DNA from: a virus
Length of the DNA stretch: 64,000 nt
IMG/VR virus record: IMGVR_UViG_3300042371_001161
Location: 55,749 to 119,748 of that record
Strand: one strand, 5' to 3'
The notes under the pieces were generated by a model that saw only the letters and a program-made list of their open reading frames with translations, had not been told where the DNA came from and did no database searches. The position numbers and the translations under genes are program-made. Below, one piece after another: positions 960 through 46,688 of the stretch; position 1 is the stretch's first letter; every line of letters begins with the position of its first letter.

Positions 960-3900
960 ATGCCATCAGAATTGTTTGAATATAAGTCGTCTACGCTCGG
1001 GCACTCCGACTCCATCAATTTGGATGAAGCGCAGGGAATTGTCGAATGCTTCGTGGCTGGCATCGGCAACAAGGACTCTGTGGGCGACATCGTTGCCACT
1101 GGAGCATTCACGAAGAGCCTCCAACGCCGTAAGCCGCGCGTTGTCTGGGGACACAGTTGGAATGACCCCATTGGCAAGGTTCTAGAGATTTACGAAGTTC
1201 CGAACACGGATAATCGCCTTCCTATGAAAATGAAGATGGCCGGAATTGGTGGCCTGTTCGCTCGAGTTCAGTTCAATCTCAATTCAGAAAAAGGTCGCGA
1301 AGCATTCGCCATGGTCGCCTTCTTTGGCGAAGAGCAGGAGTGGTCGATTGGTTACAAGACACTTCGAGCTCAGTTTGACCAGAAATCCCAAGCAAATATC
1401 ATTTATGAACTTGAGTTATATGAGGTATCTCCGGTTCTGCATGGCGCAAACCAGCTAACTGGGACTATTTCCGTTAAGTCCGAAGAGTTGTCCGGTGGAA
1501 TCTTGATGTCCATGATGAACGAAGAAAACCCAATTGACAAGGCAGAGATAGAAAAGCAGCTTGCTGCAATTTTGGGCGCAAAAGTATCTTTAATGGAAGT
1601 TAACGACGAAGAGATTACGTTTGCGCGAAGAATGGACAACGGAGAAGTTGGCCGCTACAAGTGTGGATTCAGCAATAATCGCGGACATTATATGTTCGGT
1701 GCGCCGCGCCCCATTGTTGTAATGCCCGTGCGTAAGCCCATTGCTCCTGTAAGCGCAATGCCAATGGCGATGCCAGGTATGCCCCCAAATGAGCCACAAA
1801 GAATTGTTCGGCCTTCTCAAATGCCATCAATCCCAGTTGCTATTAAGCCAGGCGAAAACGGCAACCAGATAGTTCCTTTGCCACCAGTGCAATACGAAAA
1901 CGATAATGGAAGTCGATTTGACCCAAGTAATCTTGACCAAGAAGAAGCTGACTTAAGAGATGCTCTTTTAAAAATCGTAAAGCGTCACGGAAAGTTTAAC
2001 GAAGATTCCGAGGGAGTATGGGCAGCGTATACCCCTGCTGCACAAAATGAAGTTGCCGGAATCGGCGTCAAGTGCTCCAACTGCGTCTTTTATCAGGGTG
2101 GAAGCGCCTGCAAGATAATCGACATGGAAGTAGAACCTGAAGGTAAGTGTCGTTTTGCCGTCATCCCAAAGGGCGTTGTCAAGGGAGCCGGCTCAAAAGC
2201 ATATGAACTCGACGAGGAATTCGCCGAAGAAGATTACGTCGCTGACCTCGAGGTGAAATACCCCGGGGAATTAGCAGTTGCAGGACTTCGTGGAGTGGTC
2301 GGCAAGCGGAGAAAGAAGCGTCGGAGCTTTAAGTTCTTGAGTGAATTTGGTTCCAAGAGTGAAGATTTTGAAGACAAGCCATACTTACTTCCAGTTGTAC
2401 CTCAGTTCGCGTTCCAAGTAAAACAAGTTCTTGACCCAATCTTTGATTACCATGGTGTTGATTCTTACGTCGACACAAGCGGTATCTTCATGACTTCTGG
2501 CGTTACTTACGAATTGATTGAGGCAGTCGACAACGCTGTCGCAAATTTAAAAAAAAAATCCTTAAGTGAAAACAACCTAGAGTGGAAAGCAGCCGGGTAT
2601 CGCCTCGGCAGAGCTATCAGCAGTCGATTAATTGACCGCCCAAACATCGGCGGAGGTCGTTCTCGCGGTCGTTTCTTCACATCTGTGGGTGCGGAAGACT
2701 TTGACCCATTCACTGCACGCGACTCCAACCTTAACGGCATCGTAGGAGAGGGACTGTTCCTGCGTGGAGTTCCGCTTGCCGTAAATGACCCAACACCAGA
2801 TGGTCCTGGCTCTATTCGTAACCCCAAGCCATCCCCCAGGCAGGTTGCGAAGCCGAATGCTGCAGCAATTTCTCGAGCGGAAATTCAAGTAGAGAAAATA
2901 ACAAAACCTAAAGAGCGCCAGAAACTTTCCTCTGGAAGCGAGCTTGTAAATCTTCCGCGAATAGACGACCCGGATGTTGATTCGGCAGAAAAATATGGCG
3001 CAGCAGAGTCGCAGCGTGACGAGCTTCAAGGCGTTTTGGATGGAGCATCAGATTCTGACCAAATAAAGAAGTTAAAGAAGGCCATTGCGGAAATCGACAA
3101 ATACATGGAACGTGTCGAGAAGATGGCCGAAGGCGAAATGGCTGATACTGAAAAGCCAAAGAAAAAGCCCGTAAAGAAGCAGGTAGAAAAGACCAGTCAG
3201 GGTCTTTCAAGCGGCTACGGCAAGTATCTAAATAAGCCCGAGGCGAAGCGGACGCAAGACGAGCGCCGCAAATATGACGGCCCCCTGTCCTCGCTTTCAT
3301 CAGGAAAGTTGGCAGACAAGGCAGAGCTTCCCGAAGGCTCCAGCCAGCTTGAAGAGTTATACAAGGAAATGGCAAAAGATATTGTCGCTATTTTGCAGGA
3401 ACTCGCCAACAATCCAGACGCATCAAAAAGATGGGAATTGCCATGGCGTAATGCCGAGAATTATGCGCGGAATCCAACTAGTGACCGCATCTACCAAGGC
3501 ATGAATCAGATGATTTTGTCCCTTACGGGCTCAGCTCGCGGCTACAAAATGAATCGATGGGCCGGAGAGGGACAGTGGAAAAAGTTAGGCGGCAAAGTAA
3601 AACCGGGAGGCAGAAACAGGGGAGTGCAGGTTCTCGTTCCTCGTGAAGGACGAAGCTTTACTGATTCAACTGGCAAGCAAGTTGAAATGGGTCGCTACTA
3701 TTCTGTTCAAACGGTATACAACGTCGATGAAATTGCAGGACTCCCAGAAAGTTTCTACGAGCTTGGTGATGTAGAAATAAACCAAGAGCAACGGTTGCAG
3801 GATATAGAAAATGTCATTAAGGAAATAGGTCCTTCTTTTGTCGAATCTCTAGGCTCGCAGGCTTTTTATCGCCCCGCCACCGACAAAATTCATATGCCTG

Positions 3901-6900
3901 CATTTGAACAGTTCAAGGATGCTTTGGCTTTTTATGGAACTGCAATGCATGAGACAATCCACTGGACATCGCATCCGAGTCGACTCGACAGAAAATTGGG
4001 GAAAACGTTTGGAGACGAAGATTACGCCTTTGAAGAACTTATTGCAGAAATAGGCTCCGCGTTTGCAATGGGCGCAATGGGCCTTGAACCAACGATACAA
4101 GAAAACCATTTGCTTTACCTAAGTAGCTGGATAAAGAAACTACAAAAAGACCCGCTAGCAATTCACCGGGCCATTCTGCAGGCGCAGAAAGCAAATGACT
4201 ACATAATGGACCGCTCTGCCACAATGCGCAAGCTCGCAGGTATCCCTGACGGCGAACGCAAGGGCAAGGACTCGGGCTGGTTTGAAATACCAATGATTGC
4301 TGGATATCCGGGTGGAGAAAAAATAAAGTCACCAACAACAATCACGGGACCAATGGAAGACCTGCTTGACATGGAGCAGTACGACGAACTTGTTCCGGAT
4401 GCTCGAAATCTAAGTATCGAAGAGCGCGAAATGCGCTCCTTCCAGATTCATCCAAATGCTATACGCAGGAACAAAGACGGCGTAGTAATTACGCCATCTG
4501 GAGCTTTGGCAAGCGGCAAAAAGGCTGGCCCAATCAAGAGCAGGAAGGGCGCTCCCGACGTAGAGCGCACCGATGAAGATATTTCCATGAAGTTTGCGTT
4601 CGGCTTAAGTAATGAGCCAACAAACGAGCAGCGAGACATTATGGATGTTGTTATGCGTCTTGTTCGTGAGAAAAACCCACAAATCATGTCTATTCTTGCT
4701 GGTGCAGGAACAGGAAAAACTACAACCCTGAAGAGTATTGCATGGGCGTTGGCTCGTGAATTCAACCTATGGCCAGAAGGCGACGAGCGTCGCAAAGAAC
4801 AACTCAAGTATTTAGCAGATAGATATAAGATTGATTTTAGCAAGATGTCTTCAGAAGAAATTGCGTTAGCAGTAGCAAAACTTGCAAAAGACAACCCCAT
4901 GGGCAATATGTATTACACGGTTTTTAACACAAAAAACCAGCATGAAGCCGAGAAAGAATTCCCTAAAAATACGGGTATAGCCACGACCGACAAGCTTTTT
5001 CTTTGGTCTCTAATGCTAGGTGGTGGCGACAAAAGATTTGGTCCTGCGTTCCGTAGAAAAATGGCAGTCCAGAAACTTAAAGCAGATAACTCAGCCGCCG
5101 GAAGCGGTAAAGATAATCCAAAATTTATAAGTAAAGAAAAAACTCCAGATGAACCAAGGAGAATTGGTTCCGATTTTGTTCGCGAACATTTTGATGGCAC
5201 GATTGAAACATTTGTAGGAGAGGAGCCTGGTTACAGGACCCTTGGTTGGCAGAGACTTGATGATGCCGTGGACTGGATTAAATTCCTTGGGATAGACAAA
5301 TGGCCCGACCAGCAAACCAGAAGAAGAGACCGAGTACAGAAGGACTCCAAGGGCAGAACAGTCCGTGACGCCAACGGCAAAGAAGTTCGTGAACAATACG
5401 ACGAGTCAATATTTATTCTCCCTGATGGAAGAGGAACAACACAAGTAACCACTGAAGAAATGGCCGATATTCTCAGTAACGCTCTCGGAAGATGGGAAAT
5501 ATCAAAAGAAGAAAAAGCAGCAGCATGGATGTTTACGCCGTCGGCATATCGTGCAGAGGGCCGCACCACCCCTAAAGGCCAGGGAAAAGACATTCATGTC
5601 GTGGACACGGTCCTCACAGAGGACCAAGTACCCAAATTGTGGGTTGAGGCCCTCCAGCAAGCGATAGATGCAATGATGGACGGCAACAGCAACATGATTC
5701 CGCGAAGGGACTCTGTTCAAAAACTATGGCTACTTTCGAATCCGGACTTAAGAACCGACCCTGGCCTCATAACGCATTCTGAAAATCAAACAAGAAACAA
5801 AGTGCCGATACCGAATACATACAAAGTTGGAGACAAGTATGTTGACGAGAACGGTGAAGAATGGATTGTGGCGGGAACCTCGCGAGATGGTTCAAGTAGC
5901 AAAGTAAAAGCAAGACTTGCCAAGCGGGTTGCCACTGTCGAGAATCCACTCAGCGCGTTCATGGTAGACGAGTCTCAAGACTCTAATGAAATTTTGGAAA
6001 CCGTATTAGAAAACAATAGAAAAAATCTTCCAATAATTTTAGTGGGTGATGATAGACAGGCTGTTTATGCTTTCCGCGATGCGAAGAACATACTTGATTC
6101 CCTTGATGCTGAATATTCGCTATCAATAACCGAATCATTTAGGTATGGACCAGTCGTCGCTCACTTAACCAACATGGCACTTGGTCGACAGAACCTCTAC
6201 CTGAGAGGACAGGAAGTTCCGCAGTCAATGGACTGGAAGCATGTGAAGGGTCAGGCACAAGAGGTCATAAACATGTTGTTTGACCCAGTGCTTGCAAAAA
6301 AAGACAGAAAAGGCGCAAATCAAGTTCCAGAAATCAACGACAAAACACGCGCCCTGATTATCGACGATATTGAAAAAAGATTTTCAACACCAGATAAAAA
6401 AATTGAGATATCTGACAAGACCAGAGTTGCTCAGGATGCAATTCTAAAACAACTACGCGACGAGCTCTACGATGAAAGAGAAGGAAAAATAGTCGACTTT
6501 GTTGAACTCGCCAATCAAGGCATCTTCCCAGACGCCATTTTAACAGGGACTAATGCGGAAATTATAGACTGGGCCCTCAAGTTCATTGACCTAGTCATCA
6601 ATAGGCCGAACGCCGAAAAAGACGAAAATGGATTCCCAAAAATACCAGAAGTAGTTATTCCAGCCAAAAAACATGAAGATTTGTTGGCATTTACTATTCA
6701 ACTTGACTACATCATGAAAAGTCCAGAACAGCAAGCGGCATACGAAAAAATATTTGGGGGACGTCCCCCTGAATCCCAGTGGCTTGGGCCAGTCTGGACA
6801 CAGGGAAGACTTCAACAATTACTTAAACAATCCAGGTCCCAACAGCTAACCACCGCATACAGACTCATAACGACAGCCCCACCAGGACAAGCGCCTCTTG

Positions 6901-9623
6901 GAACTCGCGGAATGCTCACCCTTCTTCGGGGTGAAAATATTGTTGAAGAAGTAAACGGCAAACAAAAAATTCGCACCGTTCCTGCGGTGCTATTGCCAGA
7001 AAGAAAAACTCAACAACTAAACAATTTTACTGGCGATGACTCAGACCCATCAAAAGGTGTCAGGGCAGTAGTTATGGGAATATCTCGCGGCACCAAAGCG
7101 GCAGAAGCAGAACAGGCGAGTGATAGTCAGCGTAAAAAAATAATTATAATTCCTCAACCAACTGGAGCCACCGATGGAAGGTCGGCTGTTTATGCACAGC
7201 TCGAAATTAATGGTGGTAGCAGTACGAAACCAGGAAAGCCAACCGGCAAAATAATCATTACTGGAGATGGCGTTGATAGTAATCGGCCAAAAATCAACGA
7301 TGATGGTTCTGAGTCAAGAAACAAGGCACCCAATCAAAGGGTTGGTAACGGTAGATTCAGAAGGAATCTCGAGAAAATAATTCAAAGATATGGACTTCAA
7401 GACAAGGTTAAGCCCAAAGAAGAGGCAGAGGGGGCCATGAAGGGAGGTTCTAAGCGTCGCCTGTATGACGGTTGGGTGATTGAAGGAGAAACTCTACAAG
7501 AAAGTTCGGACATATTGGAACTTCTCGGTCAGGCTCTTCGTGACGAAGCAAAGGAAGTTGGCGGAGATGTTCAAATAACCACGATGGCACTGAGCAAGGG
7601 GCGGGAATTCGACTATCTCGTTATGGCGGACGACATTGACGACCCTGATGACTTATTGCCTCAAAGTACACCGAAGGGTGAGGCTTCCATAGGATGGATG
7701 CAGGCAACGAATCTCATACATGTAGGCCTTTCACGTGCTAAAAAAATGATAGACCCAGGAGCAAAGACCTTTGCCTTTTATTTGCACGACCAGAAAACGA
7801 AGCCAGTTCGCGAAGCGATGGCTCAAGCCGTAAAAGATGGACACATCCCAGAAGGGCTCGACAGAGGAGCATTTGGCGATGAGGGCGGAATACCGCTGCC
7901 GGACTTCTATCAAAAACTAAACGCCATGCGCGTCGAAGATATCAATTTCGACAACCTCCCTGCAAGGGGCGGCGCAAAACCAGACCCATCGACAGGCCTG
8001 TCAAGTGGAGCGGGTAGTGGCCCCAAAAATACACCAACTCGTCGCGACGGCAGACTCAATAGAAGAGGGTCGTCAGGCGGCAGTAGAATTTACGATGGCA
8101 GCGGAAGCGCACAAGAAATTGCTGGCATTCGCTTTAGGGGTGACTTAAAGTCGCCAAAAGAGCAAGCCAAGTTGAATTTCTCAATGAACGTGTGGAAGCG
8201 TTTCCGTGACGTCGGAATAGCAATAGATGTGGACGACGATGCATCAGAAACCGAAGCACGCAAATCTAAAAACGCTGCAACAATAAAGTCAGTTGGTGCA
8301 GAGATGAAGAAGCGCCAAAACCTCGTTCGTGTCGGCAGAGTGGGCGACAATAACGTGAATGACGCTCCCTCGGCGCTGACATGGATGCTGTCCGTGGACA
8401 AACTTGCTGAAACTCTAAGAGTTCCGACCGAATTTGTTTCCGCCAATAGGGACGGGAAGAGTTCGCTACAGTGGACTCAGACCCGCCCGGTTACACGCAA
8501 AGAGCTTGCAACACTTCTTGGCTTGAATGGTCCAGATACGGCAGCCCTGGAAGCGCCGGACGCCGGCATCAACCATGATGCTGTCAGACTGCTTATTGCC
8601 GAACTCGGCAAGCAACCAGAGCTGAGCGCATGGCGATACTTTTCCCCAGTTAGCGCCGAAGAAGTAGCAAAGATTATCCCGCCATCACCCAGTGGTGATG
8701 TTGAAGGATTCTCAAAGATAGACCTTGCTTTGGAAAATGTTGGTCGCGCAAACATGCGTGACAGGTTCATAATCGAGACCTTCGGCAAGGACGCGTTCCC
8801 TCATTGGTTCGACCCGGAAGAGGGCGAGTCCATAACGCCAGACGAATACAGCAAGCTTGGCGAAATTAGCGCAGTGTCTAAATTCCGCGCAACTGGTCGC
8901 TTTGACCCAGAGGACCCGACCAAGGGCGACTCAGAGGCAGAATACGACCTCTACGGAGAGCTTATTGATGGCGTTCTGCCTAGTGCGGAACCAGATGGTG
9001 AGATAATTAGTGGAGACAAAACAAGCAGAGAAGATTTTGAATTAGAGCAGCTTCTGAAATATCTAGGAATCGATAGACAAGAATGGAAGACGACCCTTAA
9101 AGAACGAATGTCTGCTGCTTTCGGAATGGATGCCGTCGGAGCATGGGACGAATGGAAGAAAGACGGAATACCAACGGCCACGGTCGCTCACATGATTAGA
9201 ACTGGGTTAATACCTAACGCCGCTTCAGTCTGGAAAGACGCGTCCACGGGCGAAAGATTTGACAACGAACTGAAGAAATCAAAATACGCCGTGTATGAAG
9301 CATTAAACGAATTTATTGACAAGAGTTTTCCTGATAGCAAGCTCAATAGCCAAGCCAGTCGAAACAAGATAACTGGAAGAACTGACATGGGTGTTGCGTT
9401 AAGAGATGCTGCGACGGCAAAAGGCTCGGCATGGTCTCCGAAAAAAGGAAACGAAGCAAGATTCTCTGACTCAGAATTGCAATCAATAGTTGACAGATTT
9501 AATGAAGTGTTCGGAACCAATCACACCATCGATGACATATTTAGCGCCGAACAACTGAGAACTGCCGCAGAAAGAATTGAGTCTGGTGAAACCTTGTCTG
9601 GCAAAAAGAGAAAAGTAAGTTAG
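960..9623 (+). CDS. HK97-family prohead protease fused to polyvalent cargo (Cys4 domain, ArdC-like ssDNA-binding/zincin module, UvrD-like SF1 helicase, unknown C-terminal domain)
   Basis: Protease motifs GNKDSVGDIV, VWGHSWNDPIG, EWSIGY, LYEVSPVLHGAN; ArdC motifs WELPW, YQGMN, FYRPATDKIHMP, HETIHWT, YAFEELIAEIGSAF; helicase motifs AGAGTGKTT, VDESQD, VGDDRQAVYAFR, ESFRYG, SKGREFD, VGLSRAK. Confidence 0.9.
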   Translation: MPSELFEYKSSTLGHSDSINLDEAQGIVECFVAGIGNKDSVGDIVATGAFTKSLQRRKPRVVWGHSWNDPIGKVLEIYEVPNTDNRLPMKMKMAGIGGLFARVQFNLNSEKGREAFAMVAFFGEEQEWSIGYKTLRAQFDQKSQANIIYELELYEVSPVLHGANQLTGTISVKSEELSGGILMSMMNEENPIDKAEIEKQLAAILGAKVSLMEVNDEEITFARRMDNGEVGRYKCGFSNNRGHYMFGAPRPIVVMPVRKPIAPVSAMPMAMPGMPPNEPQRIVRPSQMPSIPVAIKPGENGNQIVPLPPVQYENDNGSRFDPSNLDQEEADLRDALLKIVKRHGKFNEDSEGVWAAYTPAAQNEVAGIGVKCSNCVFYQGGSACKIIDMEVEPEGKCRFAVIPKGVVKGAGSKAYELDEEFAEEDYVADLEVKYPGELAVAGLRGVVGKRRKKRRSFKFLSEFGSKSEDFEDKPYLLPVVPQFAFQVKQVLDPIFDYHGVDSYVDTSGIFMTSGVTYELIEAVDNAVANLKKKSLSENNLEWKAAGYRLGRAISSRLIDRPNIGGGRSRGRFFTSVGAEDFDPFTARDSNLNGIVGEGLFLRGVPLAVNDPTPDGPGSIRNPKPSPRQVAKPNAAAISRAEIQVEKITKPKERQKLSSGSELVNLPRIDDPDVDSAEKYGAAESQRDELQGVLDGASDSDQIKKLKKAIAEIDKYMERVEKMAEGEMADTEKPKKKPVKKQVEKTSQGLSSGYGKYLNKPEAKRTQDERRKYDGPLSSLSSGKLADKAELPEGSSQLEELYKEMAKDIVAILQELANNPDASKRWELPWRNAENYARNPTSDRIYQGMNQMILSLTGSARGYKMNRWAGEGQWKKLGGKVKPGGRNRGVQVLVPREGRSFTDSTGKQVEMGRYYSVQTVYNVDEIAGLPESFYELGDVEINQEQRLQDIENVIKEIGPSFVESLGSQAFYRPATDKIHMPAFEQFKDALAFYGTAMHETIHWTSHPSRLDRKLGKTFGDEDYAFEELIAEIGSAFAMGAMGLEPTIQENHLLYLSSWIKKLQKDPLAIHRAILQAQKANDYIMDRSATMRKLAGIPDGERKGKDSGWFEIPMIAGYPGGEKIKSPTTITGPMEDLLDMEQYDELVPDARNLSIEEREMRSFQIHPNAIRRNKDGVVITPSGALASGKKAGPIKSRKGAPDVERTDEDISMKFAFGLSNEPTNEQRDIMDVVMRLVREKNPQIMSILAGAGTGKTTTLKSIAWALAREFNLWPEGDERRKEQLKYLADRYKIDFSKMSSEEIALAVAKLAKDNPMGNMYYTVFNTKNQHEAEKEFPKNTGIATTDKLFLWSLMLGGGDKRFGPAFRRKMAVQKLKADNSAAGSGKDNPKFISKEKTPDEPRRIGSDFVREHFDGTIETFVGEEPGYRTLGWQRLDDAVDWIKFLGIDKWPDQQTRRRDRVQKDSKGRTVRDANGKEVREQYDESIFILPDGRGTTQVTTEEMADILSNALGRWEISKEEKAAAWMFTPSAYRAEGRTTPKGQGKDIHVVDTVLTEDQVPKLWVEALQQAIDAMMDGNSNMIPRRDSVQKLWLLSNPDLRTDPGLITHSENQTRNKVPIPNTYKVGDKYVDENGEEWIVAGTSRDGSSSKVKARLAKRVATVENPLSAFMVDESQDSNEILETVLENNRKNLPIILVGDDRQAVYAFRDAKNILDSLDAEYSLSITESFRYGPVVAHLTNMALGRQNLYLRGQEVPQSMDWKHVKGQAQEVINMLFDPVLAKKDRKGANQVPEINDKTRALIIDDIEKRFSTPDKKIEISDKTRVAQDAILKQLRDELYDEREGKIVDFVELANQGIFPDAILTGTNAEIIDWALKFIDLVINRPNAEKDENGFPKIPEVVIPAKKHEDLLAFTIQLDYIMKSPEQQAAYEKIFGGRPPESQWLGPVWTQGRLQQLLKQSRSQQLTTAYRLITTAPPGQAPLGTRGMLTLLRGENIVEEVNGKQKIRTVPAVLLPERKTQQLNNFTGDDSDPSKGVRAVVMGISRGTKAAEAEQASDSQRKKIIIIPQPTGATDGRSAVYAQLEINGGSSTKPGKPTGKIIITGDGVDSNRPKINDDGSESRNKAPNQRVGNGRFRRNLEKIIQRYGLQDKVKPKEEAEGAMKGGSKRRLYDGWVIEGETLQESSDILELLGQALRDEAKEVGGDVQITTMALSKGREFDYLVMADDIDDPDDLLPQSTPKGEASIGWMQATNLIHVGLSRAKKMIDPGAKTFAFYLHDQKTKPVREAMAQAVKDGHIPEGLDRGAFGDEGGIPLPDFYQKLNAMRVEDINFDNLPARGGAKPDPSTGLSSGAGSGPKNTPTRRDGRLNRRGSSGGSRIYDGSGSAQEIAGIRFRGDLKSPKEQAKLNFSMNVWKRFRDVGIAIDVDDDASETEARKSKNAATIKSVGAEMKKRQNLVRVGRVGDNNVNDAPSALTWMLSVDKLAETLRVPTEFVSANRDGKSSLQWTQTRPVTRKELATLLGLNGPDTAALEAPDAGINHDAVRLLIAELGKQPELSAWRYFSPVSAEEVAKIIPPSPSGDVEGFSKIDLALENVGRANMRDRFIIETFGKDAFPHWFDPEEGESITPDEYSKLGEISAVSKFRATGRFDPEDPTKGDSEAEYDLYGELIDGVLPSAEPDGEIISGDKTSREDFELEQLLKYLGIDRQEWKTTLKERMSAAFGMDAVGAWDEWKKDGIPTATVAHMIRTGLIPNAASVWKDASTGERFDNELKKSKYAVYEALNEFIDKSFPDSKLNSQASRNKITGRTDMGVALRDAATAKGSAWSPKKGNEARFSDSELQSIVDRFNEVFGTNHTIDDIFSAEQLRTAAERIESGETLSGKKRKVS

Positions 9624-9753
9624 AGATGCTAAAAAATCAAAGAGAAGTATTGGGTGTTCCTAATTCACTCACGTATAGCGTGATAGGTTATAATTTAAAT
9701 ACATTATTGGTTAATGGTCTATCCGGTCATTTCCCTGCACTAACGGGAGCTGT

Positions 9754-11496: not shown

Positions 11497-11509
11497 GAGG
11501 GGGCGCCAC

Positions 11510-14500
11510 GTGGCGAATACCCCAGCAATGCGGGAAAGAGTAATAGTTTCAGCACAACTCATGGTGCCGTCTTCGTGCTGCGGCGACTTCAATGAAAAGG
11601 CAGTTCTTTTCAGGCAGTCGATTAACTCGTCTCTGTCAACTGGAAAACTTCAGGCCGAGCTTGTCACAAAAACTATTACAGAAGGTTTTGGCATACGCGT
11701 AAAAGCCGATGTCGATACCGACGGGAAAAAACGAGAATTCACCGGAGACAGTCGACCTGGTGTCGAATCCAATGAATTTGGATATAGATGGGAAACGGGA
11801 GGAAAGTGGGAACCCGGTTCGAGGCTTGTCTTGAGCCCTCCTTTTCAATCTCGCGAGGGAATGGGCACAGAGCCCAACTTTGGCTGGTTGCCGCCGGAAG
11901 ATAAGTCAACGACAACATTTGAAGAAATGCTTCGGGCCTATAGGGAAAAGCCAAAAATAAAGTTAAGCAAATACAAGGTAAATCCAAGGACAGATGAGGT
12001 CATACCTGATTCCGAAAAAATCATTGACCCATTCGGAATAGCGGCAGGGCTTAGCTATGAAGAAAAACAGCAAGCCTTACGTAAAAATGAAAAAAACACC
12101 CTAGAAGAAAAAAGATTACCGGGTCGCAGTCTTGAATCCAGAGTTCCAGGAGGCTCGCTCCTTTCGCGAGCTGCAGCCGTGTTTGGCATCCTTCGTGACG
12201 AAAACAATAAATTTAGATGTCCTCCAGGAACGCCTGCAGCAAATCAATTTACAGACGCCACTGGAGCAAACTGTTTTGGATTCAGTGCATCGAAATTCTC
12301 TCGCTTTGCAGCGCGACAGGCAGCCAAGCTCACTGCCCAAGGTGAATATACGGGATTGCGCCAAAACGCCGCAGACTTCTTCAGATGGATACATGGCCCC
12401 AGGTCGAAAAGAGACCCTGCTCTTGCGGAAAAGTGCGCCTACTGGGGAATCAAAATACCGGAATGGCGAGACATCGCCGTCCCAGAGAATTTACGTTTAT
12501 TTAAAAACGGAGCCATTCGTGGTCAGGATGATATTGCTCGTCAAAAAGCCGAAGTTGTGCGCATGTACGACGCATTGGGGATTGACGCCGACGACCCAGA
12601 TGCTCCGGTTAAGGCGCTTAAAAAACTAAAAGAAATGCATTCGCAAACAGGCGGCACTGCTGGCTGGGATGTGCAAGTTCTTGATGTTTCCGGAAAAGGG
12701 GACGAGCTATTAACAGATGTAGAAATAAAAGAATTTGTAAAAACAAGACTCTCATCTACTCCTGGCTGGAACAGGCTCTCTAGTAAAGAACAAGAAAGAC
12801 TATTGAAGTCTGATTTTGAGCGATACAAGACCACTCAACGAGCAATGCTTGAAACCTTACTTGACCAATTCATGACAGACCCAGGCAGCATGCGTGGGGT
12901 TGGTCGAATTGAATTCAACTTCATGACAGATGATGAAGCTGGTACGTCCTTCTATAGAACGCAAAATGGGATGAAAACGGCAATACACATCAATATGGGG
13001 ATGATTAGTGCCAATCAAGAAACCATGCTTCCGAACATGGGCGGAGACGAGCGTTTAGCAATATCTGCTATTGGTGCTAGAAGCGAAGCAGAAGGACGAC
13101 TTGCGGTTGCTGATTTCATGGTAAATGCAGACCATACGGCCAGAGGCATGGCCGGCCTCCTTGATGGCGTGTATGGATTTTCAAGTCATATCATGCTCCA
13201 TGAAATAGCTCACCACAAACAATCTCAAGTATTCCTGGACAAAATACAGAAAGAAATTACAGAAAAAGGTTTCATTTCCGTTGCGGTCAGAAATAAAAAA
13301 GGAGCTGTTGTTGGCGAGCGTGAAGTTAAGAACATCAATAGCCTGACAGGCTCCGACCTTATGTCAATAATGACTGGCATTGCTGACTCAATCAATATTG
13401 AATCGCTAAATGACGCAATGACCAGAATCCAGGCAATTGCTCCATTGGCTGGGGCATACCCGCGTGATGGATACGCTGTAGGTTCGGAAGTATGGGCGCT
13501 GGAAGCATCTGCCGAGATTTGGGCACTACGCGAACGCGGAATTATCTTTGGCGACGATGTTGACGCTGCTCTTGAGTGGATGGACAACATGTCCTTCTCT
13601 GTGGCGGCAAGAGACCGAACGGCAAGTGATGACACAGATGGTCAGAGAAAATTAGATGACGTATTTGATATTCCCGCGGACCCCGTTGACCCAGGTTCAG
13701 TATCAGATGAAGACATCGACGCGCGAGCTACCGCCGCAATCCGTGAAGAACTTAAGCGATTCAAAACAGAGTTCTCCAAATTTTCAGAAGAAGAAATGTT
13801 TGAAGAGGCAGCAATCATTGGCTCTCAGCGTGACGCCAGTGCCAGACGGCTGGAATTATTAGAGGTAGAAGAGATAGAAGACCCCTTTTTCCCGCTTACC
13901 ACATCAGGAAAAATCGTTCGAGACATACTCAAGGCTGATGCAGTGCGGGAAGCCAAGAGAGAATTTGATTTTCACGCAAAACGATACGACGAGGCGTCAA
14001 AAATTTGGCGCAAGAAGTACGGTATAGGCGCTAGTGGTGAAAGAAAAAGATTTGATGATGAGGTCTACTCGATACGTAAGCGAGAAGGTCTGCTTGATTC
14101 AAAAGAAATGGCCGATATTGCTCGCAGGGCCGACCTCGATGATTTGCGCGACAGAGTTAAATCAATGCCCGAAAAGAAAACTATCAGCCTCTTGGTTGAC
14201 GACAAGGTAAGACTCTCGAAACTCGACTCTTCGTCTGATGAATTTAAGAAATTGGCCGACGAGATTGAGGTCATTAGAGAACAGTACGTAGAAAATATGA
14301 AGTCCGCAGGAGATACGCGGACTAAAGCACAAATCAAAAAAGAACTTGATAAAAAAGTCAATGACATCATAAATCCACCATCGAAGCCTAAGAAGAAATT
14401 CAAGAGCGCTGATGAAGCTCGAAAGCACGGCGCAAAAGAGCGCGCCCGAGTAAAAGCAACGCCCGAACAAAAAAAGGCTATGAAGGAGCTTGGAGATGTA

Positions 14501-17500
14501 GCGGAATCAGATGTAGGGATGCTTCTTGACCCGGTTTCGCAAACAAGAGCCGGCCGAGCAATAAATAAGCGCAACGCACGCCTCAAAAAGCTCGGCTTAA
14601 AGGTAGATAAAACATCTTCTGAAGAAGGAGATGTCGTTCAGCAGGTAGAAAATCTACTCATACCGACGATGGAGGCAATCGATGGGACGTCGGTAGGCGA
14701 ACCATTTGAGATGGAAGCAATAATTGACTTTGAATCTGGTGTTTTGAAGGGGAAAATAGATGGCAAAGAAGTCAGCCTGGACCAGTTCATTTCCGGAAGA
14801 GTCATAACAAGTAGGACTAAAAAAACAGATATGCCGGAACGCGGAAAGCGTGACCCCAAGTCCGGAAAAACCAAGCGGCGAGTTATTCTTTCCGTGCGTG
14901 AAAAAGACCGCGGACTATTCCCAACTACGGGAGGGGATTCGGAGCAGAAATTTGTTGCTCCGCCGGGGAGAATAAGAATAATTGGCAGAGATGCTGACGG
15001 AACTATCCGTGCAGAAATTTCATATCAAAAAGATACTGTAGAAGTCGTCGACTCATTGGCGGAAAATCTCTCCAAGAACACGACAGACGCAATCTGGGCT
15101 AGAAGTCATGGCAAAAAAATTCAAGCCATGGCGGACAAGTACGTGACCAAGCGACGCTCATCTGGGAAAGCAGGCCCTGGACCACGAAGTGATTCTGACG
15201 AGTCTGCCAGCACCCGAAGTAAGGCGACTTTAGATAAGGTTACTGATGCTGGCGGCTCATTTGCCGATTACGACAATCCAGACAGCGGCTCAGGGGCCCT
15301 CTCTTCTGGAGCCACCACGCCCGATGGAGTACTAGGGAAGCCATCTACGCGTCAGCAAAGAACAGAGTCACGTACGGCGGCAAACTCCTCAATTATCAGA
15401 AACATAAAAGACGTACTAGGCGGTGGCGGGAAAGATGGAGCCATATCTCGTGGGGATATTCATCCAGAGGTGGCGAAATTTATAGCCGACACTCCGGAAG
15501 AAGAAATCATAGCCAAGGCAGCTGAAACCGCCTACAGAATGCATGAGGGTTTTGATAGAAGAGTTCGCGTTAGGGCAACAGATTCGGACATAGATAAACT
15601 TGCATCAGGCGCTGGTGTGCGCTCCCCGTTTTCCGTGCCATCAGCGGATGGTTCTCGCCCAACAAGAAGAGCGCAGAGACTTGCACAAATGGGACCAGAA
15701 GAACGTTCCGAAAGACTTTCTTCAGGCAGAACGATAGATACAAGCGGAAGCCTGGCCGAACGTAGGCGTCAAGAGGGGGAAGTCGCAAAAAAGGCTTTGG
15801 AAGTTTTCAATGATGTTGTCGATAGCGGCACAAATATTAACGACATGTCCGATGATGAGATATCTAAAAAGTTCGGTGGAGCGGTAAGGCGTTCTGGCAG
15901 GCGTTCGATTAGCGAGAAGGACTCGAATCTATACGAAGTCGACGACGTTCATACAGCCGTAGCAATGATGATGCTTGGACACCACGTCGAAGTTAAAGAA
16001 CAAGACATACGCCTAACCGAACAAGCACAGAAAGCCTTTGAAAAAGAAGTTAAAACAGTTGCAAAAAATCACATAAAAGACAATCATCCAAAATGGCGCT
16101 CATTCCAGGAAGACTATGCAAAGAGAAATCCTGATGCGGACCTAAATGACCCCAAGACGCGCGAATCCATGGAGGGTGAATACATCGGCAATTATCAGGC
16201 GGACCTATGTTCCCTATACAACCCGGCGAATAACCTTATGTGTTCAGGGCATATCGGTATTGACAGAGAAAAAATGCCTCAAACAAATGGGCGGTCATCT
16301 GGCCACAAGACCAAAGCAATTCGAGCACTAAAAAATGGGATTGCAGCAGGTAAATGGGAACCATCAAAGGACGAGAACGGCGACCCGCTCGTGTCTAGAG
16401 ATAGGGGACTTGAAATAGAGTTTGCAGACGAACTAGACAAAGCAATAAAAAAACAAAACGCTAAACGCGCAGAAAAAGGAAAGCCTCCCGTATCTGATGA
16501 GGAAATATCTGGAATCCTGTACGGAATCATCGCCGACAAGCACTCATTAAAGAACGAAATGGGCGGGAAGACGGCAGCGGAGCACAGGGCAGATTCTTTT
16601 TCTACACTTTCAGATAGAGCGAAAGAGTGGCTTTATGAAAATACTGACTGGAATGATACCGAGGTAAACCTTGAAACACCATTTATTGATTGGCTTAACG
16701 GACTAATCAAGGTTGATGACCCAGAAAATGGTCCTGCAGTTAGACGTCGTGATGTGGACCCAAGTGAGTATGCCCCTTCTCAGCAACAAATAGTAGCTAG
16801 CAAGGCAGATGGAACCGCTCAAACGGTTCAAGAAAAAGCAATTGAAGTAGCAGAAAAAATAAGAAAAGATAACCCTAAGATATCTGACAAAGATTTTAGA
16901 GATAAATATTTAGAAGAAATGCGAAAAGAATGGTTCATGCAACCAATTCTCACAACAAAAGATTCATATATTCTCGATGGACATCATAGATGGGCTGGAA
17001 TAGTCGTCGCGAATAGGTCATTATCAGAAGAGCTTCAACTGCCACTCTCAGCAAACGAAGTACAAACAGACATTATTGAAGGACTGACCCTGGGTAAGGT
17101 TTTCCAAGATGCATTTGGAATCAAGGAAGCTCGCTTGGGAGCGGAAAATCGATGGGAAGTTGGCGAAATTGAAGATATGAGCGCTGATGAGTTTTCTGAT
17201 ATCGCCAAGGACTTAACGGATAACGCCCCAAGCTTAATCGACGCAAAATATGAACAAGGGGATTACATCCAACTTGGCTCAGTGGGTCTCACAAACAATC
17301 CAGATTATGCAGCAAGGTCCAAGGAAAGGCAAGCTACTGCCGCTCGAGATGAAACTAGAAAAATAGCCAGCGATGTTGTTGCAAAAGTCCGTAAGCGCGG
17401 CAAACCTCTTCACGAATACACTCCAGAGGAGCTAAAAGAAGATTTTGGTGACTCAATAAAGCCAAGCGACCTAAAGCCTTTGTTCACTAGCGCGGACCCC

Positions 17501-24736: not shown

Positions 24737-26086
24737 ATGTCGCAAGACAATTCCCGTACCGAGGAGCTTCAATCAGCCCTCCGTCAGAAGATGGCAGACA
24801 ACAAGACCATCGCTGACTCATTCAAGGTAGAAGACGGCACAGTAGTCGTCACTACGGAACAGAAGACCGCGTTCGACAAGAACATGCGAGACATCAAGGA
24901 AATCAAGTCGCTTCTTAGTGACCTTGATACCATGAAGTCAGTCGACCAGTGGGGCTCACAGCCTGCAGGCGAATCAGCCGCAGCAATGTACGCTGCCGCT
25001 GCCGCAGACCTCAGTCACTTGTCTTCACGTGAAATCAAGAGCATCGGTCAGCTATTTCTTGATTCTCCGGAATTCAAGGCACTCAATGGTGGTCGCAATG
25101 GCGCAAACATGGTTGCCCCATGGACCGTCGCTGCTTCACTGACGACCCAAGGAATGTACAACGTCAAGGATGTCTTCTCGGCAACCCCGACCGGCACCCC
25201 TGGTTCGTTTGGAACGATTCAGCGTGACCCGATGGTGACCCCGCCGACCCGCACAAAGCGCGTTCGCGACTTGTTCCCGGCCCGTAAGACCAATGCTGCT
25301 GTTATCGAATACTTCCGTCAGTTGGGTTTCACGACCCTACAGACGGGCCATGGTACGAACAGCGCCTCATCGGTTGCTGAGCGAAATAGCGGCAACACCG
25401 CCTTTGGCCTCAAGCCACAGTCGTCGTTCGCCTTCGTTGGTGAGCAAGCCCCAATTCGCACACTCGCACACTGGGAAGCTGCACACCGCAACGTTCTGTC
25501 GGACGAGCCGCAATTGCGTTCAATCATCGACAACGAACTCATGTACGGTCTCCGTCTCCTTGAGGATAATCAAATCCTCAATGGTGATGGCGTCGGCGAG
25601 AACTTGCTTGGTGTTTTGAATACCCCCAACATCCAGCAATACGCCTGGTCAGATGGAGAAAACTCCCCGGTCGCAGATACAAAGGCCGATGCACTTCGTC
25701 GCGCCGCAACTCTCTCGTTCCTTGCTTACTACGAGCCATCTGGCGTCGTACTGCACCCGAACGACTGGGAAGACATCGAATTGACCAAGGATGCCAATGG
25801 CCAGTACCTCATCGCAGTTTCGGTTGCAATGGGTGGCGAGCCACGCGTCTGGAGAATGCCGGTAATTGATACCCCAGCAATGACCGCTGGCAAGGCCCTT
25901 GTCGGAGCATTCGGTACAGGAGCACAGTTGTACGACCGCGAAGAGGCGAGCATTCGTATCTCTGAGCAGCACTCGGACTTCTTCATCCGTAACGCAATCG
26001 TGATTCTCGCCGAGCAGCGTTTAGCTCTCGCAGTGAAGCGTCCCGAAGCGTTCGTTGAGGTTACCTTCGACAACGAGCCAGCCTGA
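24737..26086 (+). CDS. Major capsid protein, HK97 fold
   Basis: Strong RBS; N-terminal coiled-coil delta-like domain; VRDLFP, EQAPIRTLAHW, QILNGDGVGENLLG, VVLHPNDW..IELTKDANGQYL, RNAIVILAEQRLALAVKRPEAF. Confidence 0.95.
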   Translation: MSQDNSRTEELQSALRQKMADNKTIADSFKVEDGTVVVTTEQKTAFDKNMRDIKEIKSLLSDLDTMKSVDQWGSQPAGESAAAMYAAAAADLSHLSSREIKSIGQLFLDSPEFKALNGGRNGANMVAPWTVAASLTTQGMYNVKDVFSATPTGTPGSFGTIQRDPMVTPPTRTKRVRDLFPARKTNAAVIEYFRQLGFTTLQTGHGTNSASSVAERNSGNTAFGLKPQSSFAFVGEQAPIRTLAHWEAAHRNVLSDEPQLRSIIDNELMYGLRLLEDNQILNGDGVGENLLGVLNTPNIQQYAWSDGENSPVADTKADALRRAATLSFLAYYEPSGVVLHPNDWEDIELTKDANGQYLIAVSVAMGGEPRVWRMPVIDTPAMTAGKALVGAFGTGAQLYDREEASIRISEQHSDFFIRNAIVILAEQRLALAVKRPEAFVEVTFDNEPA

Positions 26087-29121: not shown

Positions 29122-29194
29122 CGCGCCGGGCAGGATTCGAACCTGCAATCGACAGATTAGAAGTCTGTTGCCTTATCCCTTGGGCCACCGACGC
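29122..29194 (-). tRNA. tRNA-Arg (anticodon TCT)
   Basis: Reverse complement GCGTCGG...ACAGA CT TCT AA TCTGT...GCAGG TTCGAAT CCTGC CCGGCGC G; acceptor, anticodon and T stems pair; CCA not encoded. Confidence 0.92.
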
Positions 29195-29697
29195 TAGGGG
29201 TTTTGCTTGTTTTTTCTAGCATGATACAGATTTCTTTGCCGTTCATTTTGCTTCTCTTTGTTTTTTAGACGGTACTCGCGCTTGCATTCTTTACAAACTC
29301 TGTATTCTTTACCAATTTGTCTGCCTTGCTTCTTTACATAGACAAGAGGTTCAAACTCTTCAAAAGAGTGACCCTTCTTGCAGCCATCTTTCTTCCTATT
29401 AGAAGTTCCTTGTCTGTTTTTGTTAAACATGTCCCTTGAGTTGGCAGAATAGGTGTCGGCCCACAGGTGCTCTGGATTGACACATGCCGGAACATCGCAG
29501 GTATGACAGATTATTAAACCATCAGGGATTTCACCCTTATGGATGATATAAGAATAATGGTGGGCCGAGGTTGTCTTGCGGTTTACCGCGAAAGAACCAT
29601 ACCCGCGAGAGTTTGGCGCTCCAGTCCATAACCAACAGGAATCAGTCTTGTTTACCTTTTGGAAAAAACGTTCTTCGAGGGACATGTTTTTAGGCAT
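29194..29697 (-). CDS. HNH homing endonuclease
   Basis: CWLWTGA...GYG...AHHYSY...ICHTCDVPACVNPEHL, plus a C-terminal CKKGH...CKEC Zn motif. Confidence 0.9.
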   Translation of the reverse strand: MPKNMSLEERFFQKVNKTDSCWLWTGAPNSRGYGSFAVNRKTTSAHHYSYIIHKGEIPDGLIICHTCDVPACVNPEHLWADTYSANSRDMFNKNRQGTSNRKKDGCKKGHSFEEFEPLVYVKKQGRQIGKEYRVCKECKREYRLKNKEKQNERQRNLYHARKNKQNP

Positions 29698-29701
29698 GTG
29701 A

Positions 29702-31627: not shown

Positions 31628-31716
31628 GATTTCCTGTCAGGTGGGTGGATTGAATAGTAACTAGGAAACGAGTGTAGCGCACAGATGAATAAAGAAAAAG
31701 TCGAGAGAATATAAAA

Positions 31717-32052: not shown

Positions 32053-32066
32053 ATTAATAAGTTTAT

Positions 32067-32780: not shown

Positions 32781-32796
32781 GCGCTAAGGTTGCATC

Positions 32797-33117: not shown

Positions 33118-33140
33118 CTGCGCGAGTTGCATCTTTCATA

Positions 33141-33554: not shown

Positions 33555-33580
33555 CTCTCGCCCATACAACGGAGGTTCAA

Positions 33581-33904: not shown

Positions 33905-33922
33905 AAAAAGAGCGATTAGCCA

Positions 33923-36432: not shown

Positions 36433-36742
36433 CCCAGAAGAAGACAATATTCGTGCGGCAATGGACAAAGTGGCAGAAACAATAACGCCAACGGTCTCCC
36501 CGTTAATCAATGCTGCTGATGGCCCTGCGGATAAGCAGGTTTTAATCAGAACCAACGATTATGAACGAAATAGATGGAAAGAGGCCGCAACGCTCGAACA
36601 GGTAACTCTTTCTGCGTGGATACGGAATACCCTCAATTCAGAGGCCAAGCGTCTTCTGGAGTGTGAACACCCGCTGAACATGATGCGCTTCTACCCGTGG
36701 GCAAAAATATGCACCAAATGCGGCGCTCGCCTCAAATCCTAG
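36416..36742 (+). CDS. Small DNA-binding protein (RHH-like + Cys/His motif)
   Basis: VLIRT...WKEAA...TLSAWIRNTLN; CEHP...CTKCG. Confidence 0.55.
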   Translation: MTQDSNPEEDNIRAAMDKVAETITPTVSPLINAADGPADKQVLIRTNDYERNRWKEAATLEQVTLSAWIRNTLNSEAKRLLECEHPLNMMRFYPWAKICTKCGARLKS

Positions 36743-36770
36743 GTTATTTACAATGGTATTATTTAATTAA

Positions 36771-39700
36771 ATGTCTGTAGATAACAATGAGTTCCACATC
36801 CCCTTTGAGGAAACGCGTCGCGGTGTAGATTCAAACACCGAAGAAAAGGCCGCCCTCGGTCGGCTGGGGCGCTATTTGGGCTCCAGAGCCACAAACAGAC
36901 CCACTATCGGCCAGAGGCGAAGAGGCAGGGGCGGTGGTCGAGGGGTCGAAATACCTACCGGCGGCAAGCCAGGCACACGAAACCCAACGGGCTCGCGAAG
37001 GGACGTCGATGGAGACGGCTGGGCTGACGAAGGAACCAAGAAGCCGGTATGGGTGGGGATGGGGAATACGGAGCCCGCATCAAAACCAAAGCCTCAAGCG
37101 CAAAGACAAACAGCGAAAAGAACCGAGACAGAAGTTGCCAAGAAGCTATCCAGTGGATTGGAGCAACTGTCGCCGTTAGAGCGTTACGACTATGGTCCAG
37201 TGGTTGCTGCCAAAAAAATCAAAAGCAAAGACACCGAATACAGGCTAGTCATTAGGAATGACTTTGATATTGGCATCTATCTTGAATCAGATTTCAACAA
37301 AGCACGCGACGTTTTAGTCGAGAGATTCAACAAACTTGGAGCGAACCCCTTCAACGATAAGCCATCTCCATTGGGTCCGGAGGATATCGACGACAGGGAT
37401 GTTCTGAGGTTCATGCTCGACAACGATAAGACCATAAAAACCATGTCGGCCATGCAAGTATGGTCGCCCGGTGGCGGCAGTCGAACTGAAGTTTTTCAAA
37501 TCAACACAAGACCCAAACACCAAAGACGTGGTCTCGCAGCAGAGATGTTCAATACACATAGGGAAACTTTCCCTGAGTTGGACCTTCAGCACAGTGATGC
37601 GTTGAGCGAGGATGGTCGAGCATTTTCAAAAGCAGTACCGGCTACGTCCAACATGGAATCCCCAGATAGGCCGTCCAGTCTTTCGTCTGGAAAAAAATAT
37701 CAAGAGCTTGTCGATGCTCAGCCAGAATTAACCGAAGAAAAGTTGCGTCAGATAGACGAGCTTAATGAATTATTAAGAAGCGATTTACTTGATAGCGCCG
37801 ACTCGTATAGTGAAGATACTGATGTATTTGGCACAGGAATAGATATTTTAAATGATTCACCAGAGCGTGCAGCACAAAGAAAAAGAGTGCATGATTTATT
37901 ACGTGAAATTTTTAGTGGAGAAATTGAGTTAGAGGAAGACATCATCGTCACCGCTACTAATGGCGAAAAAATAAATTTAGGAAAAACTGTTGTTGTTGAT
38001 GTTGCTGAATCTTTCGAAGCCCTTGGCTGGCAGGTGGAGATAGACGAAGTAAGTGAAGAAGATATACAACTAGTCCAAGACCAAACTTTTGAACCATTTC
38101 TTTCAGCCGATTCAACCGGCATTGGCCTAGCCGCAAGATTTCAATTCAAACTAACCCCCACTGCCGATGCCGCAGAACGACTAACTGCAGCCGGGGTGCC
38201 AGATGAAATGATTTGGGATGAGATGATGTCGGTTGGGCCCGGCACCCAAGGAGAAGTGCAATTTGGTCGCTCCGCAAGAATGCTTTCGTATTTTCCTGGA
38301 GATAAACCAACGGCGACGATGCAGCATGAGACTTTCTTTCTGAATTCGGAGTCTCAAGGACACGGCATAGGAAGCGCATTCAATGCAAGAAATGAAAAAA
38401 TATACGAAGCTATCGGTCAATTAAAAATATTTGCAGCGGGGACGTCCAATACCGAAGAATCCATTGGGGCGACGCACTGGCCTAGAAATGGATTCACGTG
38501 GGCCGGGGAACCAGGGAAACAAACTTTTCTTGGGACAATCGCAGAAGCCCTCGATGATACTGAACAGAACTGGTTTAGTCCGGAAGAGAAATCCCGGATA
38601 TCGTCATTAATACGGAAAAATCCTGATACGGGCTTATTTGAAACTGACTCAACCCCAGAAAATCTTCTCAAATTCCAACGAGCAACGGAATTATTCAAAG
38701 AAAAAGAATTGTCGATTCTTTACGTGCGTGAAGTATCCAAGAGAAAGACTCCAGCCGGCGCACTTTCCAGTGGGCGCATCGGAACCGTAAAAACAGAACC
38801 AGTCGAGATGATGCGTTCAACGGAGTTTCCGAAACTAGGTACTAAATTAATTGATTCTGGCGGTACGCCCGACCCCACCTCTAGTCAAAAACAATATATG
38901 GAATTCCCGGTTTACGAAATTGACGGGAAAAAATTTGCGTTTGGCAATACTGACTTGGGCCGATTCCAGCCTGAGTTCAATACCGAAGATATAGAGATAG
39001 TCCCTCTAAATCCTTACGCAATTGTCGGACTGCCCAAAACCTCCACCGAAGGACAAGAGTGGGCGTTGAAAATGTTTCATGCGATTCAAGCAGTTTCTCT
39101 TCTTGACGACATTGAGGCTGGGCGTGTTGGCAATAGAAAAGTTGGCCTAGTCGCAGCTTTAACTTATGCTGCGAAGCGGGGAGATAAGCCTGCCCTAGAA
39201 GAACTGGAACGTTTGGCAAAAATTGGTGAGGAGCTTTTAGTAAACAACCGACGAGATTTCGTATCGGCTGCGAAGGTGTACAACGAACAGATGTGGGACG
39301 TTGACGGCACCTATTGGGACGACACGCCAAATATGCAAGTCGTTCTTGGCCCGACAAGAACCAATGAATACGGCGACACCGTCCGCACAACAAGAGCACT
39401 AGGCATCGATGACATGTTTCTTGTTCACCAAACATCATATAAGCCTCAGTATGATGACGACGGCAATATTATTCTTAAACCAACCGGGGATTTTATCCCA
39501 ATTGACCCCAATACTGGCGAGCAATTATTGGACCCCATATCAGGCAAGCCAGTCGCCATGCCAGACCGCGATTCCATACATATGACCCTTAATCACATGG
39601 TCAAGGGTCATATGTGGAGAAATGAGCCCACGGAATCAACAAGCGTTATCATCGTTCCACTAAGAGACGTACTTGACGCTAACCCCGGCTCCTTGGACAA

Positions 39701-46688: not shown

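Follow-up and report, generated by a model that had tools for sequence, protein, structure and literature searches.

What is the role of a four-residue peptide, Leu-Ser-Ser-Gly (LSSG), that recurs throughout three giant phage proteins? The question is raised by a stretch of viral DNA of 64,000 nucleotides (hereafter the window), positions 55,749 to 119,748 of the IMG/VR record IMGVR_UViG_3300042371_001161, which is the final 64 kb of a record of 119,748 bp with an estimated completeness of 71%. The peptide is present as 17 exact copies across the giant open reading frames (ORFs) A, B and C. The first-pass annotation of the window had read these ORFs as polyproteins cut at LSSG into separate effectors packaged in the phage head. 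According to the comparisons presented here, LSSG is probably a cleavage code whose reader is a phage protease that co-evolves with it. A phage-encoded endopeptidase would recognize [R/K/S/G]-L-S-S-G-[R/A/K] at the module junctions of ORFs A, B and C, as well as two or three times in the tape measure protein, and its cuts would release separate modules from about 9,000 polyprotein residues. The protease would co-evolve with its sites, so that related phages would have rewritten every junction, to ISGRM, ITGAM, VSGxM or GLAS-R. The three giant ORFs are:

960..9623, plus strand: giant ORF A, 2887 residues, with S78 protease, Cys-rich region, ArdC-N and MPTase, UvrD-type helicase and C-terminal module
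11510..20059, plus strand: giant ORF B, 2849 residues
36771..46688, plus strand: giant ORF C, 3305 residues, with replication genes alongside

All 17 exact copies lie in the three giant ORFs at the nucleotides first reported for them, and their number far exceeds chance, as had been claimed. From the composition of the three ORFs 0.28 copies are expected, and 5000 shuffles gave a mean of 0.27 and a maximum of 4. LSSG is also the commonest tetrapeptide in the giants, any other being present in at most five copies. The earlier statement that the window's other ORFs lack the exact motif agrees with the present search, since the other plus-strand frames of the window include no LSSG and the seven minus-strand matches are all outside real ORFs. 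The variants listed earlier (LASG at 4506 and 41517, FSSG at 40179, LSSE at 19052 and LSSN at 42678) are all present, together with an additional LASG at 15599. Different copies use different codons and the motif is kept in homologues, which bears out the proposal that the peptide and not the DNA is under selection. The residues within 15 positions on either side of the motif have a hydrophobicity of 0.275 vs 0.36 ± 0.02 at random positions, and none of 5000 draws was as low.

The motif is conserved far beyond the window. More than 290 giant homologues of ORF A were found, nearly all with an S78 domain, and in almost all of them no tetrapeptide is more frequent than LSSG. In 249 giant homologues, including altogether 734,161 residues, LSSG was observed 1,454 times against 21.6 expected, and the logo of these copies reads [R/K/S/G]-LSSG-[R/A/K]. 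Positional conservation was compared among 21 collinear orthologues of ORF A with 43–73% identity. Three of the five sites of ORF A (residues 779, 1183 and 2347) are present in all 21 orthologues and the other two in most of them. The motif columns are conserved at 0.81–0.99 vs 0.26–0.50 for the indel-rich flanks, the overall value being 0.60. An alignment of 40 proteins, with identities down to 22%, has just three invariant columns, and the S-G of site 779 belongs to them. The sites are distributed as follows:

2925..2936, plus strand: LSSG, ORF A residue 656, in 16 of the 21 orthologues
3204..3215, plus strand: LSSG, ORF A residue 749, in 15 of the 21
3294..3305, plus strand: LSSG, ORF A residue 779, directly ahead of ArdC-N, in all 21
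4506..4517, plus strand: LASG variant, ORF A residue 1183, ahead of the helicase, in all 21 (LSSG in 14, LASG in 7)
7998..8009, plus strand: LSSG, ORF A residue 2347, in all 21; motif conservation 0.99 vs flanks 0.26
15299..15310, plus strand: LSSG, ORF B residue 1264
15599..15610, plus strand: LASG variant, ORF B residue 1364
15716..15727, plus strand: LSSG, ORF B residue 1403
18938..18949, plus strand: LSSG, ORF B residue 2477
37146..37157, plus strand: LSSG, ORF C residue 126
37680..37691, plus strand: LSSG, ORF C residue 304
38763..38774, plus strand: LSSG, ORF C residue 665
40179..40190, plus strand: FSSG variant, ORF C residue 1137
41427..41438, plus strand: LSSG, ORF C residue 1553
41517..41528, plus strand: LASG variant, ORF C residue 1583
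42798..42809, plus strand: LSSG, ORF C residue 2010
43890..43901, plus strand: LSSG, ORF C residue 2374
44151..44162, plus strand: LSSG, ORF C residue 2461, upstream border of the exonuclease cassette
45027..45038, plus strand: LSSG, ORF C residue 2753, downstream border of the exonuclease cassette
45048..45059, plus strand: LSSG, ORF C residue 2760
46269..46280, plus strand: LSSG, ORF C residue 3167

These sites mark module boundaries. The ArdC-N and MPTase domains, the UvrD-type helicase and the DEDD exonuclease, recognized with Pfam, PHROG and NCBIfam profiles, each lie between motif sites, and homology blocks stop 3–9 residues from the sites. The earlier view that the motif brackets named domains thus stood for ArdC, the helicase and the exonuclease, and its "ParB pair" fits two ILDGHHRW motifs of ORF B; the GNAT domains it had also named were not recovered, GNAT and ART domains being below threshold in every one of the three libraries in ORFs A, B and C. 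The domains and motifs detected in the giants are:

1038..1469, plus strand: HK97-type prohead serine protease (Peptidase_S78), ORF A residues 27–170 (Pfam 1.2e-11; PHROG head maturation protease 4.5e-26)
3354..4172, plus strand: ArdC-N (residues 799–907) and MPTase-PolyVal zincin (residues 948–1071, HETIH at residue 997), ORF A (Pfam 1.7e-15 and 1.7e-39; PHROG anti-restriction 3.7e-65)
4629..6182, plus strand: UvrD/AAA_19-type helicase core, ORF A (Pfam UvrD-helicase 4e-11, AAA_19 1.9e-07; PHROG DNA helicase 7e-25)
12524..13606, plus strand: zincin-like metallopeptidase module, ORF B residues about 339–699, with HEIAH at residues 564–568 (nucleotides 13199–13213) (conservation, AlphaFold2 model, structural match)
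16976..18520, plus strand: two ILDGHHRW motifs, ParB/Srx-like, ORF B residues 1823 and 2330 (regular expression; weak NCBIfam SerK match at residues 1790–1831; PHROG 2859 at residues 1794–1836)
42231..42245, plus strand: HEYGH motif, possible further zincin, ORF C residue 1821, where no domain is assigned (regular expression only)
44286..44861, plus strand: DEDD 3'-5' exonuclease (RNase_T), ORF C residues 2506–2697 (Pfam 7.4e-15; PHROG 1.4e-25; NCBIfam DEDD families)

The placement of the sites in predicted structure was examined with an AlphaFold2 model of ORF A residues 600–1250, based on a 40-row alignment and with a mean predicted local distance difference test score (pLDDT) of 72, which covers four sites. 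All four are in coil immediately N-terminal to folded units, and the statement that the motif never interrupts a domain was borne out. The pLDDT of the ArdC-N and MPTase region is about 80–93. Sites 656 and 749 lie in or beside stretches of pLDDT below 50, site 749 at the edge of one, while sites 779 and 1183 are in confident coil with a pLDDT of about 80. The modelled sites are at domain edges, and only half of them are in a free linker.

The same junctions are spelled differently in related phages. Among the capsid-gene neighbours from 80 related contigs, the giants carry other lineage-specific peptides, here called dialects: FSSG, GLASG, ISGRM, ITGAM, VSGxM, GVSGxM, GLAS-R and STRS. In two complete variant genomes (G001 and G002) the dialect motif is found chiefly in the giants of the head module and in a tape-measure-like protein, and looser pattern matches extend to three smaller ORFs, which include the S78 protein of G001. 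The exonuclease cassette allows one homologous boundary to be followed through three dialects. In ORF C it covers residues 2468–2744, between LSSG at 2461 and 2753; in G002 it covers residues 799–1067 of a 1721-residue protein, between ISGRM at 787 and 1071; and in G001 the alignment starts from residue 801, between ITGAM at 790 and VTGSM at 1088. The check set beforehand in the first-pass annotation, a lineage-specific peptide at equivalent boundaries of homologous phages, was consequently positive. As judged from these alignments, one boundary carrying three dialects points to a co-evolving trans-acting reader rather than to a physical property of a linker. The LSSG dialect is stable down to about 72% capsid-protein identity.

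Two relatives add observations on how the giants are built. The 3464-residue giant of G002 (L105:4103-14494), which uses a variant dialect, contains NUDIX, helix-turn-helix/sigma-70 region 4, DnaJ and Zeta-toxin-like kinase domains in series, and the cargo content therefore differs widely between related phages. In G021 (L109, G021:C1:32963-43791, minus strand), which uses a GLSSG dialect, ArdC-MPTase is present in a frame of 1104 residues with a 13-nucleotide overlap with the end of a 2510-residue S78 giant. A frameshift, a programmed shift or faulty assembly could each account for the overlap. This seemingly separate ArdC ORF was rejected as evidence of gene splitting, as it overlaps the end of the upstream giant and looks like its frameshifted continuation.

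Which protease would read the code? One candidate is the S78 domain at the N-terminus of ORF A, overlooked in the first-pass annotation, which could cut L-S-S|G; this assignment is made tentatively. Its residues H65, S129 and H161, presumably catalytic, are conserved in 119–122 of 123 homologues and invariant in a 39-row alignment, so that the domain has the conserved His and Ser of its family. Assemblin-type serine proteases have a hydrophobic residue at P3 and small residues at P1 and P1'. The S78 domain is present in 19 of the 20 related records, and in the complete ISGRM genome Pfam recognizes no other protease within the head giants. Between dialects it differs by 24–28%, about as much as the capsid protein. 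A phmmer search of ORF A residues 1–300 against the PDB sequences gave no match. The predicted complex of the S78 domain (ORF A residues 1–215) and a 40-residue junction peptide scored 0.00, a value that speaks neither for nor against binding.

The other candidate is the HExxH zincin in the N-terminal module of ORF B, likewise missed at first, which would cut before a hydrophobic residue; we hold it to be slightly more doubtful as the reader. Zincins have a hydrophobic residue at P1'. Residues H564, E565, H568, E665 and E669 are invariant in 42 homologues, and the AlphaFold2 model of the region has a pLDDT of 82–96. The top match of the model in VIA-align was the catalytic domain of anthrax lethal factor (1yqy_A; Z 9.7, root-mean-square deviation 4.8, 196 residues aligned), a modest score, as for helical models a Z of less than about 13 leaves the match uncertain. 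The next matches were PPEP-3, PPEP-2, thermolysin and PepO, with Z 5–6, along with other zincins. Foldseek found nothing at E ≤ 0.001 for the model in the PDB, and no Pfam, PHROG or NCBIfam family was assigned to ORF B residues 339–699. Among 140 giant homologues of ORF B residues 150–760, that part carries a Pfam name in none. All 20 related records have the module, which is only 22–24% identical between dialects.

Two conserved stretches flank these protease domains. Between the S78 domain and the first LSSG, ORF A has a conserved Cys-rich stretch (residues about 250–650, window 1700–2900) with the family consensus GVKCxNCVFY...CKII...GKCRF, which may be a zinc ribbon and to which no family was assigned. 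Upstream of the zincin, the motif NKFRCPPGTPAANQFTD..NCF at residues 237–257 of ORF B (window 12218–12280) is invariant in 42 homologues, and three or four head-module proteins of medium size in G008, all without a junction motif, have it too.

A third protease of the giants, the ArdC-type MPTase-PolyVal of ORF A (residues 948–1071), would as the reader act after ejection or in the cytoplasm, and in that case different, unrecognized proteases would have to serve the remaining dialects. The family (PF18818) is present in 12 of the 12 [LF]SSG-dialect records holding the region and in none of the 11 variant-dialect records, of which three are complete. The most conserved site, residue 779, lies directly ahead of the ArdC-MPTase unit at a pLDDT of about 80, and the tape measure protein could also be within reach of a zincin that acts outside the prohead. 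The MPTase was also proposed as a processing enzyme of polyvalent proteins by Iyer et al. 2017 (PMC5512222). However, the [LF]SSG records form one clade on the capsid-protein tree (support 98), so the co-occurrence of MPTase and LSSG counts as a single event, is of little weight, and was rejected as independent evidence. Complete genomes without PF18818 keep the full junction code in their own dialect, and ArdC-N with MPTase is known as a self-contained anti-restriction unit of plasmids and phages. On balance this enzyme is an improbable reader. The analogy to cysteine proteases drawn in the first-pass annotation (PLpro and adenain) found no counterpart: Pfam, PHROGs and NCBIfam recognized no cysteine-protease family in ORFs A, B and C, large parts of B and C having no assignment, and the proteases found are the serine protease S78, the ArdC-type MPTase and the ORF B zincin.

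The motif is also present outside the window, which had not been noticed earlier. The additional carriers are:

G000:C1:34961-39841, minus strand: putative tape measure protein, 1627 residues, directly upstream of the baseplate genes, with a Gly-zipper stretch
G000:C1:12463-13299, plus strand: ORF of 279 residues with one LSSG, between a collagen-like tail fibre gene and a 549-residue ORF

The putative tape measure protein includes KKLSSGR near its start (LSSG at residue 44), LASGR (LASG at residue 572) and ALSSGY (LSSG at residue 584), and its counterparts in G001 and G002 have one copy each of their own dialect at a different position. The LSSG of the 279-residue ORF corresponds to about the chance level for the rest of the genome. 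No targeting segment shared among ORFs A, B, C and the tape measure protein was found by BLAST. RCPPGT was rejected as a shared N-terminal packaging tag, as it is present only in ORF B in this genome.

A signal common to tail and head-module proteins, and the wholesale switches of dialect, would be explained if the motif were cut by a host protease, either as the particles assemble or following ejection, and the dialects followed the hosts. In Staphylococcus phage 80alpha a host protease trims the capsid and scaffold proteins. A host enzyme is nevertheless a very improbable reader here: three phage proteases with intact catalytic motifs are encoded in the same proteins, and the LSSG dialect stays the same over the range of capsid-protein identity given above. 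Under the reading preferred here, in which the protease is phage-encoded, the cut could take place within the prohead, in the cytoplasm, or once the proteins have been ejected. The first-pass annotation had all products packaged in the head. For ORFs A and B this is plausible, as their genes lie between the portal and capsid genes and A is fused to a prohead protease; for ORF C, which stands among replication genes, and for the tape measure protein the claim proved too narrow.

Several observations weigh against this cleavage-code reading as a whole, or against particular proteases as its reader. The motif in the tape measure protein means that a head-only model does not cover all candidate substrates, which are not confined to the prohead. 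Tails assemble separately from proheads, as stated for SPN3US and T4 (PMC10052503), and a strictly prohead-confined S78 could therefore not reach the tape measure protein. ORF C has primase-helicase and helix-turn-helix genes on one side and SNF2 and VanY genes on the other. No S78 columns separate LASG-dominant from LSSG-dominant relatives. The S78 domain and the ORF B zincin appear to be universal in the family, the motif fits either, and these sequence comparisons do not separate them. Two of the four modelled sites are ordered. In the G008 lineage the S78 and HExxH proteins are encoded in medium-sized separate genes and there is no junction motif.

The major capsid protein adds to these points. 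Its partial match LSS-R is about 35–50 residues upstream of the position that matches the mature HK97 N-terminus in an alignment to HK97 gp5, and the capsid stretch matching that terminus contains no motif. The capsid L[ST]S is conserved in the LSSG clade, yet it is kept in one variant lineage as well (QLTSRE in the GVSGxM dialect). LSS-R as a maturation site is weakened by the HK97 alignment, by this persistence in the GVSGxM lineage, and by the variants having no motif of their own there.

The ordered sites and the motif-free G008 relative bear also on an alternative in which the motif is not cut at all, being instead a short linear recognition or hinge element, e.g. one by which all tail-exiting proteins dock onto a chaperone, packaging or ejection factor. 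The carriers, namely the giants and the tape measure protein, all leave through the tail or are suspected of doing so, and two modelled sites are not free linker; the lack of the motif in a relative with smaller separate genes fits any junction role. A hinge, however, would need neither an exact tetrapeptide nor a change of dialect across whole genomes. Numerous copies in each chain, with all module boundaries occupied, form the pattern of polyprotein sites, three proteases are encoded in the same proteins, and no candidate binding partner was identified. An uncut motif is accordingly considered unlikely, and cleavage by a phage protease remains the preferred reading.

The genomic setting of the giants was resolved by the remaining ORFs of the window. 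ORFs A and B are placed between the portal and capsid genes, a 580-residue ORF lying between the two giants and five small ORFs between ORF B and the capsid gene. The landmark genes are:

3..833, plus strand: portal protein, C-terminal part of a 704-residue ORF starting upstream of the window (full ORF: Pfam Phage_portal 1.3e-51, PHROG portal 2e-63)
24737..26086, plus strand: major capsid protein, HK97 fold, 449 residues, with LSS-R at residues 95–98 (nucleotides 25019–25030) (Pfam Phage_capsid 6e-41; PDB alignments)

Downstream of the capsid gene is a replication block with a class II ribonucleotide reductase on the minus strand, a Toprim/AAA_25 primase-helicase and a helix-turn-helix protein, and downstream of ORF C are a SNF2 helicase and then a VanY-type peptidase. 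The reductase (29702–31627, minus strand) is of the B12-dependent class, and downstream of it on the same strand is an HNH endonuclease ORF (29194–29697). Just 3' of the capsid gene is a DUF6321 protein (26185–27006). In the variant genome G002 the DUF6321 domain is fused directly behind the S78 protease, at residues 210–281 of an 802-residue protein, and this fusion suggests a head-assembly role for DUF6321. Among cultured phages, those of Gordonia and Brevibacterium have the nearest capsid proteins, with 47% identity, and no cultured phage in the collection searched has the full architecture of ORF A.

By domain content the giants belong with the polyvalent proteins, which are thought to be injected counter-defence payloads. 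Each of ORFs A and B unites several unrelated domains in one polypeptide (S78, ArdC-N, MPTase and UvrD in A; the zincin and two ParB/Srx-like motifs in B), ORF C includes the DEDD exonuclease alongside unassigned modules, and the signature combination of MPTase-PolyVal (PF18818) with ArdC-N is present in ORF A. Iyer, Burroughs, Anand, de Souza and Aravind (2017) described such proteins from phages and conjugative elements and predicted their processing by MPTase or assemblin-like peptidases (PMC5512222). Like the giants of the window, the proteins described there are very large and carry ArdC-N, MPTase zincin, helicase, ParB-like and nuclease modules; they are encoded beside virion genes, as are ORFs A and B, and were predicted to be delivered together with the DNA and released by their own peptidases, which in some are assemblin-like (prohead) peptidases (PMC5512222). 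The assemblin-like peptidase invariably lies C-terminally in that account and N-terminally in ORF A. The paper names no cleavage motif, and does not describe the junction peptide, its positional conservation, the dialects or the tape measure protein as a carrier. In the literature searched there was no description of LSSG with a phage protease, nor of a cleavage motif or junction code of polyvalent proteins. What the present analysis contributes is the fusion of S78 to the N-terminus of ORF A, a phylogenetic reservation about the MPTase correlation, and a universal candidate in the zincin that resembles lethal factor.

Prohead proteases that process internal or ejection proteins include gp21 of T4 and gp175 of phiKZ. 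A close parallel to the present proposal is SPN3US, in which the prohead protease gp245 cuts packaged ejection proteins at a short consensus: the protease is of the assemblin/HK97 kind, its packaged substrates are many, and several sites per protein are cut before ejection (PMC10052503). Substrates of that type are separate proteins that lose propeptides, whereas here the sites, as read from sequence, would part whole enzyme modules in chains of 2,850–3,300 residues. Also unlike SPN3US-type processing, the candidate S78 protease is fused to one of the putative substrates, and sites are present in a tail protein and in a gene outside the head module.

RNA-virus polyproteins (3C/3CL; PLpro with LxGG) likewise combine a cis-encoded protease with a short consensus at each junction of a multi-enzyme chain, and one short consensus at the junctions of functional units is what the giants have. 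In contrast to those viruses, this is a tailed phage with double-stranded DNA, its candidates are a serine S78 protease and zincins, and no cysteine protease was found. Lethal factor and the Pro-Pro endopeptidases (PPEP) are enzymes of MEROPS M34 that read extended linear motifs. The ORF B module has, as they do, HExxH with a downstream Glu, and its model aligns to lethal factor, PPEP-2 and PPEP-3; unlike them, it has no Pfam or NCBIfam match and does not belong to the family by sequence profile, and its Z of 9.7 is modest.

A conserved junction peptide that switches dialect provides a concrete processing signal for chains of 3,000 residues, with three named candidate proteases. A fuller scenario, which must be called rather doubtful, is that of orthogonal protease/site pairs: the endopeptidase (the zincin of B or the S78 of A) would travel with its substrates, dice about 9,000 injected residues after delivery and trim the tape measure protein, at a code of four to five residues rewritten in each lineage. 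If the cutting is true, the module boundaries of hundreds of uncharacterized giant phage proteins would be readable from sequence alone. The dialects would be naturally orthogonal protease/site pairs and a natural source of new specific proteases, and the polyprotein logic of RNA viruses would operate in tailed phages with double-stranded DNA.

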